Shown here in pieces: positions 397 through 48,249 of a stretch of DNA of 54,078 bases (positions are counted from its first letter, which is position 1; each line of letters begins with the position of its first letter). The notes under the pieces are model-generated. The model was not told the origin of the DNA and did no database searches. It was given only the letters and a program-made list of their open reading frames with translations. The translations under genes and the position numbers were made by a program. Source of the DNA: an archaeon (GTDB lineage Archaea > Nanobdellota > Nanobdellia > Pacearchaeales > GW2011-AR1); NCBI GenBank assembly GCA_043810865.1, contig JBDRNS010000014.1, positions 1-54,078 of the forward strand. Direction: 5' to 3'.

Positions 397-469
397 TGCC
401 CCGACCGAGATTCGAACTCGGGTTACATCCGTGAAAGGGATGCGTCCTTGGCCACTAGACTATCGGGGC
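397..469 (-). tRNA. tRNA-Glu (anticodon UUC), no intron
   Basis: Reverse complement folds as GCCCCGA-TA-GTCT-AGTGGCCAA-GGAC-G-CATCC-CTTTCAC-GGATG-TAAC-CCGAG-TTCGAAT-CTCGG-TCGGGGC-A. CCA is not encoded. Confidence 0.9.
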
Positions 470-490
470 TATAATTAAAATAAGAAAATA

Positions 491-500
491 GTTTTTAAAG
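491..500 (-). promoter_or_regulatory. TATA-like box for tRNA-Glu(UUC)
   Basis: Minus-strand CTTTAAAAAC, proximal edge 22 nt upstream of the mature 5' end. All seven tRNAs show the same spacing. Confidence 0.45.
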
Positions 501-751: not shown

Positions 752-923
752 GAGCCTGTAGCTCAGCCGGGTTAGAGCACTGCTCTTATAGGAGTGCAAT
801 TCATAGGGATTGTATTTCTCTTTGATGCGAAGCCCAGTCATGGTTGCTGGATTCGTGAAAACCCGCTGGAGGTTTTTACTCTAAGAGAGGCAGGGGTCCG
901 AGGTTCAAATCCTCGCAGGCTCA
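752..923 (+). tRNA. tRNA-Ile (anticodon UAU) with 97-nt intron (791-887) at 37/38
   Basis: GAGCCTG-TA-GCTC-AGCCGGGTTA-GAGC-A-CTGCT-CTTATA^intron^A-GGCAG-GGGTC-CGAGG-TTCAAAT-CCTCG-CAGGCTC-A. Textbook BHB: central helix CTTA/TAAG, 3-nt bulges TA^G and AG^A, inner helix GAGT/ACTC. Confidence 0.85.
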
Positions 924-11232: not shown

Positions 11233-13830
11233 ATGAAAAAGAGCGTGAAGAAAAAAGCAATTTCTGAACACGATTCTTCTGATTTTATAAAGTGGTTTTC
11301 TGAAATCAGCAAAAATGATGTGAAAACTGCAGGAGGGAAAGGGGCAAATCTCGGCGAGATGTATAATTTCAAAATTCCTGTTCCTCCTGGATTTGCCGTG
11401 ACAGCACAGGCATATGATTATTTTATTGAGAAAGCAGGAATAAAAGAAAAAATCAGCAAGCTTCTCGGAGAGATTGAATACAGCAACACAAGACAACTTG
11501 ACGAAACGACGAAAAAAATCAGGGAATTAGTAATAAAATCAGAAATGCCTGAAGAAATGAGAAGCGAAATTGTTGAGGCGTATGAAACACTTAACTTTGA
11601 GTGGGAGTCGGACAACAAAACAGTTAATGACATATTAAAGAGAATGCCTGAGAATGTTTTTGTCGCAGTCAGGAGTTCAGCGACGGCGGAGGATTTGGAA
11701 GATGCGAGTTTTGCGGGACAGCAAGAGACATTTCTTAATATAAAGGGGAACGAAAATTTAATTGAGGCGATAAAAAAATGCTTTGCGTCTCTTTTCACGT
11801 CGAGGGCAACATATTACAGGCAAAAAAAAGGTTTCAAGCATGAGGAAACGAGCTTGGCTGTTATTGTGCAAAAGATGGTTGATTCGGATAAGTCAGGAGT
11901 CATATTCTCAAAAGATCCTTCATACAAAAATGACAATGTAATAATCGAGGCGGTTTTTGGGCTCGGAGAAGGAATTGTTTCAGGAAAAATTACGCCGGAC
12001 AAATATGTTGTTTCCGGAGGAATGGAAATTATCGACGAGAAAATAGCAAACAAAAAAATTGCGATAACGAGAAATTCCGGCGGAGAGCAGACAGAAGTCA
12101 AGCTTAGCAACGACAAAGCAAATTCAAAAGTCCTCAAAGACGGCGAGATAAAAAAACTTGCCGAGCTCTCATTGAAACTGGAAAAGCATTATCAAAAGCC
12201 ACAGGATATTGAATTTGCGATTGAGGGAGATGAAATATATATTGTCCAAACGAGAGCAATAACAACTGTGAAAAACAGAATTGAAATAGGAGATGCAGAA
12301 GGGCTGAAGGGTGAAATCATACTCAAGGGGCTTGCAGCGTCGCCGGGAATTGCGGCGGGAAAAATAAGAATTGTCAGAAGAATGGAGGATTTGGACAAAA
12401 TCAAAGAAGGTGATGTTCTTGTTACAAAAATGACTAATCCGGATATGGTTGTAAGCATGCAAAAAGCCGCGGCGATTGTGACGGATGAAGGAGGTTTAAC
12501 AGCGCACGCGGCGATTGTTTCAAGAGAAATGGGAATTCCCTGTGTCGTCGGGACGGGAACAGCGACGGAGAAACTAAAAGAAGGTGAAATTATAACTGTC
12601 GATGGTTTTAGAGGAGAAATTTACAAGGGCAAACTTGAAAGCGCGAAGGCAGGTAAAAAAGAAATTCTTCCTGTAACTGCAAAAACAAAGACAAAAATAA
12701 AGGTCATAGTTGACCTGCCAAGTTTTGCGCAAAGAGCGTCAAAAGCAGGAATAAAAGAAGTCGGTTTGCTCAGAATTGAAGGAATTATTGCAGAATCGGG
12801 AAAGCACCCGTATTATTTTCTTGAAAAAAACAAAATTCAGGATTATGAAAATGTAATCTGCAAAGGTGTTGATGAAATTGCAAAATATTTTGATGAACTA
12901 TGGGTGAGAACTTCTGATATCAGGAGCGATGAGTTTCAGAATTTGGATGGAGCCAAGAAAGAAAAAGAAGCGAATCCTATGCTGGGCATGCACGGAATAA
13001 GATTTGGTGTTAAAGAGCCGGAGATTTTAAAAGCAGAACTTAATGCACTTAAAAGAGTTGCGGCAAAAAAGAAAAGAATTGGTGTCATGATGCCGCAGGT
13101 GATATCTGTCGATGAAGTAAAAAAAACAAAAGAAATTCTTAAGGAAATAAATTTCAGCGACGCTAAAGTCGGAGTGATGATTGAAACGCCTGCATCTGTG
13201 CAAATTATAAGAGAGCTCTGCGAAGAAGGAATTGATTTTATTTCTTTCGGAACAAATGATTTAACGCAGTATATTCTTGCTGTTGACAGAGGAAATGAAC
13301 AGGTTCAGCATCTTTACAATGAAATGCATCCGGCAGTTCTTCGACAGCTTGGATATGTTTTAAGAGTTGCGAAAAAAAACAAAGTTGAAACAAGCATTTG
13401 CGGGCAGGCAGGAAGCAGAAAAGAAATGGTTAAGTTTTTGGTGGAAAGAGAAATAGACAGCATCTCTGTAAATGCAGATGTTGCAAAAGAAATCTCAGAT
13501 TATGTTTCTGAACTGGAAAGCGGAAAAGTTCCTGAAGAAGAAAATGAAGAAACAAAAGAAAAAACAGAAGTCGTGAAAGATAAAGAAAAACCTGAAAGAG
13601 AGGGAGAGCGGCAGGAAGAGAAAAAGCTTGATGAAAAAGATGAAAACGAAATTCAAGAGGAACAGAAGGAAGGGGAAAAAGAACAGGATAAAGACAAAGA
13701 AGAAATTAAGAAAGAAAAACCTGAAAAAGAAGGTGAAGAAGAAAAACCTGAAAAAGACGTTGAAAAAAACGAATCGGGAAAAGAGGAAGAACAGCAGGAA
13801 GAGAAAAAAGAAGGATTGGATATTTTTTGA
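11233..13830 (+). CDS. ppsA: Phosphoenolpyruvate synthase / pyruvate,water dikinase with E/K-rich C-terminal tail
   Basis: GGKGANLGEM ATP-grasp region. Phosphohistidine swivel GGLTAHAAIVSREMGIPCVVG. PEP-utilising barrel GVMIETPA / FISFGTNDLTQY. The last ~110 aa are a low-complexity E/K tail. ATG 11233 is preferred over TTG 11224. Confidence 0.85.
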   Translation: MKKSVKKKAISEHDSSDFIKWFSEISKNDVKTAGGKGANLGEMYNFKIPVPPGFAVTAQAYDYFIEKAGIKEKISKLLGEIEYSNTRQLDETTKKIRELVIKSEMPEEMRSEIVEAYETLNFEWESDNKTVNDILKRMPENVFVAVRSSATAEDLEDASFAGQQETFLNIKGNENLIEAIKKCFASLFTSRATYYRQKKGFKHEETSLAVIVQKMVDSDKSGVIFSKDPSYKNDNVIIEAVFGLGEGIVSGKITPDKYVVSGGMEIIDEKIANKKIAITRNSGGEQTEVKLSNDKANSKVLKDGEIKKLAELSLKLEKHYQKPQDIEFAIEGDEIYIVQTRAITTVKNRIEIGDAEGLKGEIILKGLAASPGIAAGKIRIVRRMEDLDKIKEGDVLVTKMTNPDMVVSMQKAAAIVTDEGGLTAHAAIVSREMGIPCVVGTGTATEKLKEGEIITVDGFRGEIYKGKLESAKAGKKEILPVTAKTKTKIKVIVDLPSFAQRASKAGIKEVGLLRIEGIIAESGKHPYYFLEKNKIQDYENVICKGVDEIAKYFDELWVRTSDIRSDEFQNLDGAKKEKEANPMLGMHGIRFGVKEPEILKAELNALKRVAAKKKRIGVMMPQVISVDEVKKTKEILKEINFSDAKVGVMIETPASVQIIRELCEEGIDFISFGTNDLTQYILAVDRGNEQVQHLYNEMHPAVLRQLGYVLRVAKKNKVETSICGQAGSRKEMVKFLVEREIDSISVNADVAKEISDYVSELESGKVPEEENEETKEKTEVVKDKEKPEREGERQEEKKLDEKDENEIQEEQKEGEKEQDKDKEEIKKEKPEKEGEEEKPEKDVEKNESGKEEEQQEEKKEGLDIF

Positions 13831-34778: not shown

Positions 34779-34911
34779 AGCCCCATAGTACAGCGGTCAA
34801 GTATGTCGCCCTCTGGGCGAGCGATTTCGTGGTAGAGAGTAAATCTCCATCCATGGCTCGTGCGAAGTCGGGAGAGAGGCGGTGACCCAGGTTCGAATCC
34901 TGGTGGGGCTA
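34779..34911 (+). tRNA. tRNA-Gln (anticodon CUG) with 60-nt intron (34817-34876) at 37/38
   Basis: AGCCCCA-TA-GTAC-AGCGGTCAA-GTAT-G-TCGCC-CTCTGG^intron^A-GGCGG-TGAC-CCAGG-TTCGAAT-CCTGG-TGGGGCT-A. The A1:U72 pair is typical of archaeal tRNA-Gln. BHB-like: CTCT/GGAG helix with bulges GG^G and AG^A. Confidence 0.8.
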
Positions 34912-36694: not shown

Positions 36695-36703
36695 TTTTAA
36701 AAA
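36695..36703 (+). promoter_or_regulatory. TATA-like box for tRNA-Glu(CUC)
   Basis: TTTTAAAAA ends 22 nt upstream of 36725. Confidence 0.45.
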
Positions 36704-36724
36704 CCAAATACTCTATTTCATTTC

Positions 36725-36880
36725 AGCCCTCATAGTCTAGAGGCCAAGGACGCCACCCTCTCAATGCTGAAGTTTAGTCGTTGAGACAATAACTTCTGTC
36801 TTAAATGACAGGCAATTCGTGGGAATTTTATTCTCACATAGGGAACGGTGGTAACCCGAGTTCGAATCTCGGTGAGGGCG
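36725..36880 (+). tRNA. tRNA-Glu (anticodon CUC) with 83-nt intron (36763-36845) at 37/38
   Basis: GCCCTCA-TA-GTCT-AGAGGCCAA-GGAC-G-CCACC-CTCTCA^intron^C-GGTGG-TAAC-CCGAG-TTCGAAT-CTCGG-TGAGGGC-G. BHB-like: CTCT/AGGG helix with bulges CA^A and AA^C. Confidence 0.8.
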
Positions 36881-44277: not shown

Positions 44278-47139
44278 TTAAATTTTCAAGCTAACAACTT
44301 TACTTACTCCTTCGTGCATGCTGACTCCGTAGAGATTTGTCGCGTTTGTAATGACTTCGTCATTGTGAGTTATAACTATGTATTGCCCTTTCTTCATATA
44401 TTTTTTCAAAAGTTCTGCAAGACGTTCCGAGTTTCTTTTATCCAGGGCTGCGTCAATTTCGTCGAGAATGTAAAAGCTGTATGGTTTTAGTTCCTGAATT
44501 GCGAAAATCAGCGACAGTGCGACAAGTGTCTGCTCTCCGCCTGAAAGAGATGTTACATCAAAATATTTTCCGTGTCCTGTTTTCACGACAATTCTCACGC
44601 CTGAGCCGGATTCAAACGGCTCTTTCTTATTTTCTATTTCAAGATATGCAATTCCTTTTGAGCTTAAGTCAGAAAAGTTTCGCGAGAAAATTTCACTCAA
44701 AGATTCAAGAGTGTGGAGGAATGTCTTTTTCTTTTTTATGTCAATCTCATGAATTATTCTCATGATTCCTTCTTTTTCTTTTTCAATCACTTCAACTTTC
44801 TCCTTCACTGAATCATATTCTTTTTTTACAGAATCATAAACCTCAAGAGAAAGAAGATTTACAGAGCCGATTCTTATCAGCGCGTCTTTTGCCTGTTCAA
44901 GACGGTTGATTAAGGATTCCCTGCTTGCTTTTATTATTTCAATGTTCTTGAATTCAAAAAAATCTGTTTTCAAATTGTCCATCTCCGCATTTATTCTTGC
45001 CTTGTCAATGCTGAAATTGTTAATTTCCTGTTCAATTGAGTGAATTTTATTTTGGTTTTCAAAAAGTTCTGTTTCGTTCTCGCGGATTTTTTTCTGGAAA
45101 CCGTCGCGTTCAGAGATAAGTTTCCGGAATTTTCTCGTAAGTTCTTCTTCCTGCATTTTCTTGTCTTCCAGAAATTCCTCTTTTTCATTTGCAGAATCCT
45201 CAAGTAAAGAAAGTTCTTCCTGCATTTCTTCCTCGTCTCTTGAGAGCTGTTTTACATTAATTTTTGCCCTCTCCAATTCACGCTGCTTGAAGGAAATTTC
45301 AGAATCAACATTTTTGTCTGTTCTCATTGAGATTTCCTGCATTTCTATTCTCGCTGTTTCATACTTTCTTTCAACATCATAATTTTCATCCATTGCATTT
45401 TCAAGATTTTTTCTTTTTTTCCCAAGTTCGGAAATTTCCTTTTCCAAAAATTCTTTTTTTCCCTGCAGAATTTTTATCTGCTCTTTTTTTTCTTCCATGC
45501 CTGAGAGCTTAACCAAGTCAGATTCTCTTTTTGCAATTTCAGAATTAATCTGCTCGATGTCCTGCTTCAGAATTTCTTTTTTCTTCATAATTTCATTCAG
45601 TTCCCTATCTGATTTTTTAATCTCGCTTTCAAGAATCTTAATTTCCTCTTCTGTTTCAGAATTTATTGAATGAACATGTTCAGGAGTAATTTTTGATTTG
45701 CAGACAGGGCATATGTCAATTTTTTCTATTTTTTCCATAAATTTTTTCTGTTTTTCTATTTCATGCTCATCGGCGTAGGATTTCTTTTCAAATTCTTTTT
45801 CTGATTTTTCTATGCTTTCCAACATTTTCTTTTTTTCTTCCAAAGACAATTGAAGCTCGCGCACTTTTTTTCCGTCTGTTTTTTTGTCAAAAAGCATTTG
45901 TGAAACCTGCGATATTTGCTTTATCAAAAATTCCGACTCATTTGAATAATTCTGCAGAAGTTTTTGCTTGTCGTCAATTCTCTCCCTAATTGATTTCAGT
46001 TCTGTTTTGATAGTGTAAAACCTTTTTCTTTTCTCCTCAAGTTTTTCAAGCTCCTTTTTCTTTTGTTCAATGTCTTTTTGTTTCAGTGTTTCAGGAGCTC
46101 CTTTTTTCAATTCTTTTACAGAAATTTCATTTTCCCTTATCCATAATTCAAGTTCTGTTCTTTTCTTTTGTGTTTCAGAAATTTTGTTTTTGTAGTTTTC
46201 AATTCTTACATCAATACCTGCAATTTCCGCACGGAGGTTCGCTATTTCCTGATTAAGCTTTTCCTGCTCAAAGCCGGTTGATTTTTGAATTGAAGAATTT
46301 ATTGAGATTATTTTTGACTCGCAATCAGAAATATCTTTTCTTATCTCAGCGAGGATTTTTCTCAGTTTTTCAATTTCCTTGTTTTTCTTTGATATTTCCT
46401 CTTCTGTTTTTTTAATCTCTTTTTCTTTTCTCTGCAAATCAAGATTTATTATGCTTGCCTTGAATTTTTTTGTATCCTCCTCCAGCTTCTTGAATCTCAG
46501 TGCCTGCTGTCTTTCTTTTTCAAGATTGTTAAGATAAGATGTTCTTTCCCTCAAAATTGCGGTGATTTCTTTCAGTTTCTCTTCGGTTTTCTGCAATTCC
46601 CTTAAAGATTTTTCTTTTCGCGTTTCATATATTGCAATTCCTGATACCTCCTCAATAACTTTTCTTCTTTCCTCCGGATGCATTTTCACGAAGTTTTGTA
46701 TTTCTCCCTGAAGAATTATGTTAAAACCGTAAGAATCAATTCCTGCCTGAGCAAGCAACGAGAGAATTTCCTGTCTTGTTTTTGTTTCGCCCTGAATCTT
46801 GTAAATGCTCTGCCCGTTTTTTCGCACTATTCTTTTTATTGCAACTTCATCTTTGTCAATTGAAAAAATTCTGTCGCTGTTGTCAAGAACAAGTTCAACG
46901 ATTGCTTCTTTTGCAGGGGACGCGACTTTGCTTCCCAGAAATATTAAATTGCTTGCCTTCGCTGCTCTTATGGATTTTATGCTCAAACGCCCGAGGACAA
47001 AACACAATGCATCTGAAACATTGCTCTTCCCGCTTCCGTTAGGACCGAGGATAACATTGATGTTCGGCGTGAAAATCAGTTCTGTTTTTCTGGGGAAACT
47101 TTTGAAACCGTGCATCACCAATTTTTTAATATAAGCCAT
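44278..47139 (-). CDS. smc: SMC-type chromosome ATPase lacking a hinge, with central CPVC motif
   Basis: N-terminal FKSF...GPNGSGKSNVSDALCFVLG. Q-loop-like LQGEIQNF. C-terminal LSGGEQTLVALSLIFAIQELKPYSFYILDEIDAALD. About 620 aa of continuous coiled coil. CPVC at residues 477-480 of 953 (nt 45700-45711). Confidence 0.85.
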   Translation of the reverse strand: MAYIKKLVMHGFKSFPRKTELIFTPNINVILGPNGSGKSNVSDALCFVLGRLSIKSIRAAKASNLIFLGSKVASPAKEAIVELVLDNSDRIFSIDKDEVAIKRIVRKNGQSIYKIQGETKTRQEILSLLAQAGIDSYGFNIILQGEIQNFVKMHPEERRKVIEEVSGIAIYETRKEKSLRELQKTEEKLKEITAILRERTSYLNNLEKERQQALRFKKLEEDTKKFKASIINLDLQRKEKEIKKTEEEISKKNKEIEKLRKILAEIRKDISDCESKIISINSSIQKSTGFEQEKLNQEIANLRAEIAGIDVRIENYKNKISETQKKRTELELWIRENEISVKELKKGAPETLKQKDIEQKKKELEKLEEKRKRFYTIKTELKSIRERIDDKQKLLQNYSNESEFLIKQISQVSQMLFDKKTDGKKVRELQLSLEEKKKMLESIEKSEKEFEKKSYADEHEIEKQKKFMEKIEKIDICPVCKSKITPEHVHSINSETEEEIKILESEIKKSDRELNEIMKKKEILKQDIEQINSEIAKRESDLVKLSGMEEKKEQIKILQGKKEFLEKEISELGKKRKNLENAMDENYDVERKYETARIEMQEISMRTDKNVDSEISFKQRELERAKINVKQLSRDEEEMQEELSLLEDSANEKEEFLEDKKMQEEELTRKFRKLISERDGFQKKIRENETELFENQNKIHSIEQEINNFSIDKARINAEMDNLKTDFFEFKNIEIIKASRESLINRLEQAKDALIRIGSVNLLSLEVYDSVKKEYDSVKEKVEVIEKEKEGIMRIIHEIDIKKKKTFLHTLESLSEIFSRNFSDLSSKGIAYLEIENKKEPFESGSGVRIVVKTGHGKYFDVTSLSGGEQTLVALSLIFAIQELKPYSFYILDEIDAALDKRNSERLAELLKKYMKKGQYIVITHNDEVITNATNLYGVSMHEGVSKVVSLKI

Positions 47140-47179
47140 ATAAAAACCTCCAGCGGGTTTTTATGAATCCCGCAACCAT
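47140..47179 (-). repeat. 40-nt element shared with the tRNA-Ile intron (36/40 identical to 840-879)
   Basis: Minus strand ATGGTTGCGGGATTCATAAAAACCCGCTGGAGGTTTTTAT versus intron ATGGTTGCTGGATTCGTGAAAACCCGCTGGAGGTTTTTAC. Includes the GGAGG Shine-Dalgarno 7 nt before the smc ATG. Confidence 0.8.
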
Positions 47180-47214
47180 TGATTAAGTTATATGAAGAAG
47201 TTTTTAAAGATTGT

Positions 47215-47886
47215 TCAAAATTCCGCGAGTTTTTTCTGGCTTAATCCGGATTTTGCATTTTTCCAAGTTGCCCAGGATTTTCTGAAAATTCCGTCTTTGT
47301 GATATTTCTTTATGTTGCTTGCAAGAAACTTTGCTGTCAAAGGATCAGAACTGTAACCGGAACCGATTTCATTTCCGTATTTTTCTTTCAGCATTTTCAT
47401 TTCCTCCTCTCTTGTTGATTTTGCAAGTATCGAGGCGGCTGAAACAGAAACATGATTTATATCTGCCTTGTGTTCGCATGAGACATCAAGGTTTGAAAGA
47501 TTTTCTATCTGCATCTTCAAAAAGTCCTGCCACTTTTCCCTGTTAACAGACGGGCAATCAACAAGAACATTTATTTTTTTGAAACCCTTGTTTATTTTGT
47601 TTATAATCCGTGCGCATGCAAATGCCTCAACCTCGTTCAGTTTCACACCGTCCAGGTTTTTTTCATCAATCTCTTCCGGATGAATTATAATTACCTCAAA
47701 TGTCTCTGCTTTTTCACGTATTACTTCAGCGAGAAATTCGCGTCTTTTTTCTGTGAGTTGCTTGCTGTCCTTAACTCCCAGACGCTTAAATTCTTTTTCT
47801 GTTTTTTCGTCAATCAAACATCCGGCGAGAACCATCGGGCCAATCACAGGGCCGCGCCCTGCATCGTCAATTCCAAGTTTTAGCAT
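47215..47886 (-). CDS. rnhB: Ribonuclease HII
   Basis: LGIDDAGRGPVIGPMVLAG N-terminus and downstream DSK/ASI motifs typical of RNase HII. Confidence 0.85.
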   Translation of the reverse strand: MLKLGIDDAGRGPVIGPMVLAGCLIDEKTEKEFKRLGVKDSKQLTEKRREFLAEVIREKAETFEVIIIHPEEIDEKNLDGVKLNEVEAFACARIINKINKGFKKINVLVDCPSVNREKWQDFLKMQIENLSNLDVSCEHKADINHVSVSAASILAKSTREEEMKMLKEKYGNEIGSGYSSDPLTAKFLASNIKKYHKDGIFRKSWATWKNAKSGLSQKKLAEF

Positions 47887-48100: not shown

Positions 48101-48249
48101 GCCCACTTCGCATAATGGTATTGCACTGGATTGCTAATCCCCAACTTTCTTTAGAAAAGAAAGTTCAGTGCTCAAAGAAACTACAAGAGCAAGGAGAGAC
48201 AAAGATCCAGGCCCTTCGGGGCTCGCAGGTTCGATTCCTGCAGTGGGCG
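48101..48249 (+). tRNA. tRNA-Ser (anticodon GCU) with ~68-nt intron (48137-48204)
   Basis: GCCCACT-TC-GCAT-AATGGTA-TTGC-A-CTGGA-TTGCTA^intron^A-TCCAG. Long variable arm GCCCTTCGGGGCTC. GCAGG-TTCGATT-CCTGC-AGTGGGC-G. The duplicated ATCC at both junctions makes the exact splice point ambiguous (37/38 to 41/42). Confidence 0.75.

Follow-up and report, generated by a model that had tools for sequence, protein, structure and literature searches.

Contig JBDRNS010000014.1 of assembly GCA_043810865.1, from an archaeon of the Pacearchaeales (Nanobdellota), was analyzed over its 54,078 nt, and this whole stretch is referred to below as the window. Two sites in the window carry nearly the same 40-nt block, one in the intron of a tRNA-Ile(UAU) gene and the other directly upstream of smc. 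The nature of this block, its occurrence in other DPANN archaea, and its possible effect on the expression of smc are considered here. The genes and features at the two sites are as follows, where L with a number is a locus label of this analysis, UTR denotes untranslated region, and "module" denotes the block as a unit.

752..923, plus strand: tRNA-Ile(UAU) gene, with exon 1 at 752-790, an intron at 791-887 (97 nt, canonical position 37/38), and exon 2 at 888-923
840..879, plus strand: intron copy of the module (covariance model R1, 65.1 bits)
842-879, plus strand: parts of the intron copy as read from the sequence, namely 5' box GGTTGCTGGATTC 842-854, arms 855-863 and 871-879, loop CGCTGGA 864-870, and GGAGG 868-872
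44278..47139, minus strand: smc coding sequence (953 aa; Pfam SMC_N PF02463, E = 6.8e-48)
47140..47179, minus strand: smc leader copy of the module (covariance model R1, 65.8 bits), the entire predicted 5' UTR
47177-47140, minus strand: parts of the smc copy as read from the sequence, namely 5' box 47177-47165, arms 47164-47156 and 47148-47140, loop 47155-47149, and GGAGG 47151-47147
47201..47209, minus strand: predicted TATA box cTTTAAAAA of the smc promoter, 21 nt upstream of the block ATG at 47179, not of the smc ATG at 47139
47215..47886, minus strand: RNase HII gene upstream of smc, whose L212/L213 ortholog carries PF01351 RNase_HII

The two blocks, ATGGTTGCTGGATTCGTGAAAACCCGCTGGAGGTTTTTAC (840-879, plus strand) and ATGGTTGCGGGATTCATAAAAACCCGCTGGAGGTTTTTAT (minus strand of 47140-47179), are identical at 36 of 40 positions, as the original prediction had reported with correct coordinates and reading; the differences fall at block positions 9, 16, 18, and 40. 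Its statement that this similarity lies far beyond chance also stood up: the 19-mer AAAACCCGCTGGAGGTTTT common to both blocks occurs twice, against 0.03 occurrences expected from shuffles, and none of 100 shuffles reproduced the block match. A repeat search of the window recovered the pair as a 39-nt match of 92% identity, the second-longest inverted pair, and a covariance model applied to the 54-kb window with filters off returned two copies only, at 65-66 bits, the next match scoring 11 bits. On the other hand, a private duplication of intron sequence into the smc leader, as had been proposed, is not supported by the copies found elsewhere. Four unrelated contigs hold copies that match the smc block at all 40 positions, and two other copies match the intron block at 39 of 40. 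Both window blocks, which differ mutually at 4 positions, are therefore closer to copies in other organisms than to each other and are members of a dispersed family, which amounts to more than 170 copies across DPANN archaea. The finding is real, and it leads to something larger than the pair that was first noticed.

The family was collected in two scans. In the first, the 19-nt core was searched in one genome per species, and about 65 of the 91 genome blocks returned came from Woese-, Pace-, Nano-, and Aenigmatarchaeota, compared with about 4 expected by chance. In the second, which covered metagenomes, the query consisted of the 5' box and the 5' arm only, and at least 120 loci were obtained. 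Hainich groundwater and samples of the Rifle type are among the sources with many hits. About 105 of the 123 metagenome matches listed carry the rest of the module with a nearly invariant GGAGG; the unqueried half reads CGCTGGAGGTTTT in 53 of these 123, and the other full copies show single loop changes. Archaeal copies are composed of the 5' box GGTTGC(T/G)GGAT(TC), three variable bases, AAAACC, the loop CGCTGGA, GGTTTT, and three bases that pair with the variable ones. Since these copies share sequence outside the 19-nt core, the conservation is not a product of the search method. The module is 38-40 nt long and comprises a single-stranded 5' box, GGUUGCKGGAUUC, followed by a 9-bp hairpin, with GGAGG placed in the loop and the 3' arm. 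The three outer pairs of the hairpin covary, giving 56 double-change cells against 15 in shuffles (none of 500 shuffles reaches 56), and 94.5% of the hairpin cells are paired, compared with at most 61% when the partners are slid. An alternative helix between the 5' box and the loop (GCGGG/CCCGC), which is the minimum free energy (MFE) structure of the smc copy, was rejected because the T/G polymorphism does not covary with the loop. The idea that the 5' box mimics the 3' end of 16S rRNA was also discarded, the resemblance of module GCUGGAU to 16S GUUGGAUCA extending over only 5-7 nt.

Copies per genome number about 1-5, with three or four in the best-sampled metagenome-assembled genomes (MAGs) and one exact-core copy in each of two closed Aenigmatarchaeota chromosomes (CP070804 and CP070801); the covariance model gave 69 strong matches in 449 kb of loci that had been chosen for having one copy. 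Non-archaeal core matches have no 5' box and seem to belong to protein-coding regions of bacteria. Many of them translate through a conserved ...KNPLEVF... stretch, presumably ribosomal protein S7 as recognized by eye, and on these grounds the non-archaeal matches were not taken as modules. The 19-mer core has no match among the viral contigs of IMG/VR, and a viral origin was set aside accordingly. A search of the literature by sequence and by topic found no description of the motif.

Genomic context was classified for 178 copies defined by regular expression, including the metagenome matches listed. About half of them lie directly before an open reading frame (ORF), the start codon following the hairpin by 0-2 nt and GGAGG standing 6-9 nt upstream of it. 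In 43 of 68 genome copies, ATG or GTG occurs 2-5 nt after the core end GGAGGTTTT and opens a long ORF, and for 60 of the 62 distinct ORFs the start codon is found 1-5 nt after the 3' arm. At least 38 copies (21%) lie in or adjoin tRNA genes, a class that takes up well under 2% of genomes of this kind. Among the sense copies, ten are placed directly at the mature tRNA 5' end (with a gap of 0 in eight), and the six located in introns are all in tRNA-Ile(UAU) genes, each of a different organism. The antisense intron copies (n=15) are in Gln, Leu, Arg, Gly, Ser, Glu, and Ala tRNAs, always start at intron nucleotide 1-3, and make up the first 38-40 nt of the introns of about ten tRNA species other than tRNA-Ile; Rfam independently confirms 11 of 13 antisense-intron tRNAs. 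These copies are exact complements of the leader copies over 38-40 nt, and all 11 among the metagenome matches listed, an unbiased set, retain CCUCC in a place where a Shine-Dalgarno (SD) role is impossible. In a further three cases, an antisense copy comes immediately after the 3' end of a tRNA. One of these copies, at 2985-3024 of L063, is in the spacer of an rRNA operon, between tRNA-Ala and 23S rRNA, and would be released as the 5' end of the processed rRNA spacer. Copies in the T-loop were found in L030 and L184, and L137, L142, and L155 contain apparent stand-alone units of promoter, hairpin, and module without an ORF. The 59 ORFs behind the module match 82 Pfam families, no family being matched by more than three members, and include SMC, MCM, DNA ligase, RNase HII, Toprim proteins, Spt4, Sec61-beta, ArgRS, PheRS-beta, and GAPDH; a regulon of module-led genes was rejected, as this gene set is sporadic. 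It had been anticipated that the block might turn out to be a high-copy repeat with no intron or leader specificity. It is indeed a dispersed repeat, but one of low copy number with a strong bias toward tRNA genes and gene 5' ends.

At smc, the module ends directly before the start codon (47139), with GGAGG 7 nt before the ATG. Homologs of the encoded protein at 65-72% identity are labelled SMC of Pacearchaeota or Nanoarchaeota. A perfect YTTWWAWA box was recognized for 34 window genes, and in 27 of them its end lies exactly 21 nt ahead of the ATG; an SD-like sequence is found upstream of 2 of 61 window genes, smc being one of the two by virtue of the block. By this very regular promoter geometry, the window genes would be transcribed as an essentially leaderless transcriptome. 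The RNase HII gene is predicted to be leaderless in the same way, its TATA box lying 21 nt before its ATG, and the block is located in the 75-nt spacer after its stop codon. The closest smc ortholog, in L212 (72% identity), is also preceded by RNase HII and has the same promoter, AATCTTTAAAAACTTCTT, followed by 15 nt and then directly by the ATG. The L213 ortholog is leaderless too, and in the alignment the block forms a clean 40-nt gap in both L212 and L213. The promoter sequence is kept in L214 as well as in L212, and the L214 smc ortholog (1460-1500) has a decayed block at the same place, from which the 5' box and GGAGG have been lost (..GTTTCATAAAGAAAACCTTGGTTGTTTTTATA ATG). The empty sites in L212 and L213, together with the shared promoter, indicate that the smc block is additional sequence, placed after the transcription start and ahead of the start codon. 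The decayed leader of L214 resembles a class of variants with GGTG in place of GGAGG (GTTCATAAAGAGAACCGTAGGTGCTTTTTATAATGG), which is found upstream in L017 and L058. The 3' end of one DPANN 16S rRNA, as read from L063, is GGATCACCTCCT and is complementary to the GGAGGU of the module, and the 7-nt distance at smc lies within the roughly 5-9 nt that separate an SD sequence from the start of a real ORF. A promoter inside the module was considered and dismissed, since good TATA boxes occur upstream of the module at the normal distance; a crude histogram of TATA distances over all loci was uninformative.

The tRNA-Ile(UAU) gene was recovered by the Rfam tRNA model at 752-923 (51.1 bits, with a 98-nt insert after position 37, following CUUAUA) and by ARAGORN with introns allowed, which reports tRNA-Ile tat at 751-924 with intron i(41,97). 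As in archaeal bulge-helix-bulge tRNA introns, the insert is located at position 37/38 between the exons. The exon loop CUCUUA (785-790) can pair with the 3' end of the intron, UAAGAG (882-887), and the module hairpin stands 2 nt from this splice-site pairing, as judged from the sequence and the MFE fold. The hairpin of the intron copy is the MFE structure (-9.3 kcal/mol) and is kept in the fold of the whole pre-tRNA. Five further tRNA-Ile(UAU) genes (L015, L100, L148, L181, and L202) have the module 8-9 nt before the 3' splice site. Among the four tRNA-Ile(UAU) copies in the metagenome matches listed (six in all), two are without GGAGG and keep the hairpin. The best reading of these data is that the module in tRNA-Ile(UAU) is an old, inherited part of the intron that adjoins the splice-site helix. 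Independent tRNA-Ile(UAU) genes were sought through the neighboring 267-aa protein, which led to neither synteny nor a tRNA. Rfam showed no family besides tRNA at E <= 1 over 700-960 and only tRNAs at gathering score over the whole window; a C/D or H/ACA guide was not recognized in the intron, and a known riboswitch, guide RNA, or ribozyme was rejected as an identity for the module.

Evidence for insertion comes from the flanks of the copies. Of 146 copies, 17 have an insert bounded by direct repeats of 10 nt or more, compared with 2 of 141 control positions, and about 11 independent duplication events are left after tandem arrays and redundant samples are set aside, with duplication lengths of 10, 11, 13, 14, 16, 21, 22, and 23 nt. 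On the ORF side, examples are inserts of 90 nt (repeat TATGGAAAAAGAGG, a duplicated gene start), 81 nt (repeat TTATGATAAAA), 78 nt (repeat ATGAAAAGAAAAAT), and 56 nt (repeat ATGCCGAGTTATAC). The repeat in the ORF cases contains the start codon, which makes the upstream repeat copy a stranded old start. At tRNA genes, repeats of 11-23 nt duplicate the 3' part or the 5' part of the tRNA. The canonical module always ends the insert, 0-6 nt and mostly 0-4 nt from the downstream repeat. The 5' parts of the inserts differ, with lengths of 56-108 nt, and often include a first, diverged module (GGMTGCWGGA...GRAACC-loop-GGTTCY). In one MAG, the same two-module insert precedes two different genes with different duplications (L033 and L087). 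Inserts whose 3' end is precise and whose 5' end and duplications vary would fit the pattern left by target-primed retroposition, the correspondence being one of pattern only. With related inserts flanked by target-site duplications and a block cleanly missing from orthologous smc genes, the earlier suggestion of intron mobility or transposition-like spread is supported in its direction.

Several structures accompany the module. A second conserved hairpin often precedes it, with covarying arms such as CCGAATC/GATTCGG and the loop AAUCRGAGGCAAC..., and its arm and loop resemble the complement of the module 5' box. It was seen in the leaders of L002, L011, L013, L019, L041, L043, L048, L084, and L089, in the tRNA-Ile intron of L181, and in the ORF-less promoter-driven units of L137, L142, and L155, which may be small RNA genes. 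Tandem module arrays occur in L057 (3672-3805, three units with a 48-nt period) and L058 (7635-7776, 51-nt period), a 34-nt duplication of the 5' box lies upstream of a tRNA in L001 and L123, and the L191 intron has a tandem or partial module duplication.

Based on the family, the orthologous smc sites, and the target duplications, we judge it on balance probable that both window blocks are one conserved module, that this module is the 3'-terminal unit of a small (40-110 nt), non-autonomous insertion element maintained at low copy number in DPANN archaea, and that it makes smc SD-led. A possible course of events at smc is as follows. The element would have come to sit between the transcription start and the AUG of an ancestrally leaderless smc. 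The old smc promoter would now start the transcript at the block, which may thereby constitute the whole 5' UTR. The GGAGG of the module, 7 nt before the smc AUG, could then pair with the CCUCC at the 3' end of 16S rRNA, and smc would be translated by SD-led initiation, with nearly everything else in the genome presumably leaderless. The insertion would in this manner compensate for its own damage to smc, which stays translatable because the inserted piece carries GGAGG. In tRNA-Ile(UAU), the module would be removed by splicing.

Several observations weigh against this interpretation. A clear target duplication accompanies only about 10% of the copies, and the smc copy itself has none beyond ATGG. 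A selfish repeat would not usually combine so low a copy number with near-identity across phyla, and this combination suggests that there is a conserved master copy or that the module serves the cell. Random insertion would not be expected to follow orientation rules as strict as those seen, with antisense copies in introns other than those of tRNA-Ile and sense copies in tRNA-Ile introns and tRNA leaders. The stability of the hairpin alone is unremarkable (z of -1.2 and -0.4). No transposase, reverse transcriptase, or other partner was identified, although no search aimed at a transposase or a reverse transcriptase was made. Every tRNA-Ile(UAU) gene examined came from the motif search itself, and both the start of the smc transcript at the block and the use of its GGAGG are deduced from DNA.

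A wider form of the insertion reading, which we put forward only tentatively, is that DPANN archaea gain tRNA introns by means of the module as a mobile unit. The module itself would be derived from a tRNA intron, with the tRNA-Ile(UAU) intron as an example of a master, and would possibly spread in an RNA-mediated, SINE-like manner (SINE, short interspersed element), creating tRNA introns, tRNA leaders, and SD leaders; the sense and antisense RNAs released by RNase P and the splicing endonuclease may form a regulatory pair. Cross-phylum identity, strict orientation, and the retention of CCUCC suggest a conserved master copy, a structural role of the hairpin beside the splice motif, or an RNA-RNA relationship.

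The last of these relationships may be taken as an explanation in itself, one that is compatible with a mobile origin of the module and that we regard as rather unlikely. Antisense RNA from tRNA introns and 3' trailers would pair with the module in mRNA leaders through loop-loop kissing and 5'-box pairing, occluding GGAGG and the AUG and coupling translation to stable-RNA synthesis, and the sense copies in tRNA leaders and tRNA-Ile introns would act as decoys. Such a network would account for the placement of antisense copies at the start of introns in about ten tRNA species and directly after tRNA 3' ends, including tRNA-Ala in the rRNA operon spacer, and for the CCUCC that the intron copies keep. 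The sense and antisense forms are near-perfect complements across phyla, and both occur within the MAGs JACOYL01 (L010 and L071 versus L037) and CAZTJN01 (L062 versus L030). Moreover, the antisense intron RNA would be a hairpin with a complementary loop and a single-stranded complementary tail, the classic shape of an antisense regulator, and free tRNA introns of yeast repress complementary mRNAs (PMC13079951). However, the pair is not obligatory, since the exact core occurs in CP070804 solely as a sense leader and in CP070801 solely within an antisense intron copy (the search of these chromosomes covered the exact core, not diverged copies); the covariance model finds no antisense copy in the 54-kb window, and the genes downstream of the module form no regulon. 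A further explanation, less probable still, takes the module as a conserved RNA operator acting in cis. A host protein, for instance a factor of tRNA processing, ribosome biogenesis, or translation, would bind it by recognizing the 5' box together with the hairpin, and the copies would persist through use by the host and not through movement. The extreme conservation across Woese-, Pace-, Nano-, and Aenigmatarchaeota, single-stranded and loop nucleotides included, would be expected of an operator, as would the fixed intron position in tRNA-Ile(UAU) of six genomes and the presence of the module at orthologous genes of different MAGs (Spt4, Sec61-beta, ArgRS, PheRS-beta). It agrees poorly with the closest smc orthologs, which differ in the presence or absence of the block and in one case carry a decayed copy, with inserts that have target duplications, and with a sporadic gene set, and conservation of the complement in introns to an equal degree would be needless for a strand-specific RNA-binding protein.

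The original prediction had also noted that both copies start with ATG and open two short ORFs, which read as described, and had proposed that a nearly identical peptide is shared. In the form in which this idea was assessed, translation would start at the 5'-terminal AUG of a leaderless transcript, and the peptide MVAGF[IV]KTRWRF... or its translation would regulate smc. The block ATG is indeed positioned exactly like a leaderless start, at which ribosomes may begin, the 17-codon ORF overlaps the smc AUG, and the GCT/GCG and GTN variation falls on third codon positions, with the variable triplet mostly encoding I, V, or L. The copies of the family as a whole make a selected peptide very improbable, and the pattern of a leader peptide or upstream ORF is not seen in them: ATG is present in 35 of 143 copies (24%) and any start codon in 75 of 143 (52%), a stop codon interrupts 4, and 13% of the copies are out of register by 1-nt indels with the nucleotides kept. 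The would-be Arg codon CGC shows 18 non-synonymous changes against 1 synonymous change, and the would-be Trp codon TGG changes to AGG, CGG, or GGG (Arg/Gly). Furthermore, the sequence is found at sites that allow no peptide to be made, namely introns, tRNA leaders, and antisense positions. No selection for a peptide is thus apparent in the family, and the 17-codon ORF may still be translated at smc itself. Chance similarity, contamination, or an assembly chimera, the last of which had been named beforehand as a possible source of error, found no support and is effectively refuted: besides the failure of 100 shuffles to match, the sequence recurs inside contigs of dozens of independent projects and samples at biologically coherent positions, and the module is restricted to DPANN archaea apart from the bacterial matches described above.

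The insertion reading, in which the module is the 3' unit of a small element, can be compared with known systems. REP (repetitive extragenic palindromic) sequences and BIMEs (bacterial interspersed mosaic elements), Correia elements, Rickettsia palindromic elements, and MITEs (miniature inverted-repeat transposable elements) are short, structured, dispersed, and non-coding, are located near or in genes, and can supply expression signals. The module resembles these bacterial repeats in being short, structured, and dispersed, in lacking coding capacity, and in its potential to supply an expression signal; it differs from them in its 1-5 copies per genome, its near-identity across phyla, and its precise position at transcript 5' ends and in tRNA introns. 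Terminal inverted repeats as in MITEs are not present, the ends being GGTTGC... and ...GGTTTTTAT and the only palindrome being the internal hairpin, and in place of a fixed short target duplication the duplications vary from 10 to 23 nt. The arrangement of a 5' tail and a palindrome is similar to that of REP elements with their RAYT transposases, although the module does not reach hundreds of copies per genome. SINE-like retroposons are inserted by target-primed reverse transcription and are, to our knowledge, not known in archaea. The precise 3' end, the variable 5' end, and the target duplications of variable length agree with a SINE-like element, as do the dimeric nature of some inserts (two modules), the link to tRNA genes, and compatibility with a conserved master copy. 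Unlike SINEs, the module sequences have no A-rich tail and no internal promoter, and no reverse transcriptase was identified, none having been searched for.

A box C/D sRNA is housed within the intron of archaeal tRNA-Trp. The module is comparable as an RNA unit within a tRNA intron, but it has no C/D boxes and no Rfam match at E <= 1. In bacteria, tRNA-spacer sponges are by-products of tRNA processing with long complementarity to mRNAs. The module, as known here from DNA sequence, would likewise combine origin as a tRNA-processing by-product with extended mRNA complementarity, as do the sponges and the free yeast introns (fitRNAs); in contrast to fitRNAs, the complementarity is to a shared leader cassette and not to coding regions, and the pair is not in every genome. 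Archaeal SD-led and leaderless initiation have been reviewed (PMC7531240). In common with the SD sites described there, the module offers GGAGG 6-9 nt before AUG, complementarity to the 16S 3' end, and a setting alongside a mostly leaderless transcriptome; it departs from the usual SD in being a portable, conserved 40-nt cassette that would form the whole 5' UTR, with half of the SD in a hairpin arm. For Thermoproteales, a 2014 review (PMC4090602, citing Fujishima et al. 2010) describes tRNA introns with closely similar sequences in tRNAs of different identity, at canonical and non-canonical (T-loop) positions, which implies gain after tRNA divergence, and the mechanism of intron gain in archaeal tRNA genes is still called unknown there. 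The module is like the "intron transposition" families of Thermoproteales in placing similar intron sequence across tRNA identities, T-loop sites included, and unlike them in being a defined 40-nt hairpin unit that spans several DPANN phyla and also occurs in mRNA and tRNA 5' leaders, with target duplications, empty orthologous sites, and strict orientation (antisense in introns except those of tRNA-Ile(UAU)).

Other tRNA genes and one ORF of the window also deserve mention. Long introns are present in 4 of its 6 tRNAs. The intron of the tRNA at 48101-48249 (anticodon GCU) contains, at 48141-48180, a second conserved intron block, CCCAACTTTCTTTAGAAAAGAAAG.TTC.G.GCTCAAAGAAACTACA, which is also found in tRNA-Gly(GCC) introns of other organisms (L001, L044, L123, L157, and L164; ARAGORN calls L001 tRNA-Ala(AGC)) and is another intron sequence family crossing tRNA identities. 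A tRNA-Gln(CUG) gene with a 60-nt intron (34779-34911, plus strand) was found by ARAGORN -i and missed by Rfam at gathering score and by default ARAGORN; its ortholog in L037 carries the antisense module in its intron, and the window gene is without it. The intronless tRNA-Glu(UUC) (397-499, minus strand) and tRNA-Glu(CUC) with an 82-nt intron (36696-36880, plus strand) are similar about 30 nt into their 5' flanks, which suggests a duplicated promoter-plus-tRNA unit. Degenerate GAA/AAA-rich repeats with a 27-nt period lie at 13520-13810 within an 865-aa ORF (11233-13830) and encode an acidic, Lys/Glu-rich low-complexity region.

Ever since Thermoproteales were seen to have similar introns in unrelated tRNAs, it has been asked how archaeal tRNA genes gain their introns. 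The module offers a defined 40-nt unit that forms the 5' part of introns in about ten tRNA species, is accompanied by target duplications and empty sites, and also occurs at gene 5' ends. As such a unit, it makes insertion events datable, comparable, and searchable in population metagenomes. For translation, an insertion that brings its own ribosome-binding site would be a simple one-step route from a leaderless to an SD-led gene. Finally, it is unusual that a non-coding 40-mer stays near-identical across several DPANN phyla with so few copies in each genome, and this implies a conserved master RNA or else an undescribed host function.

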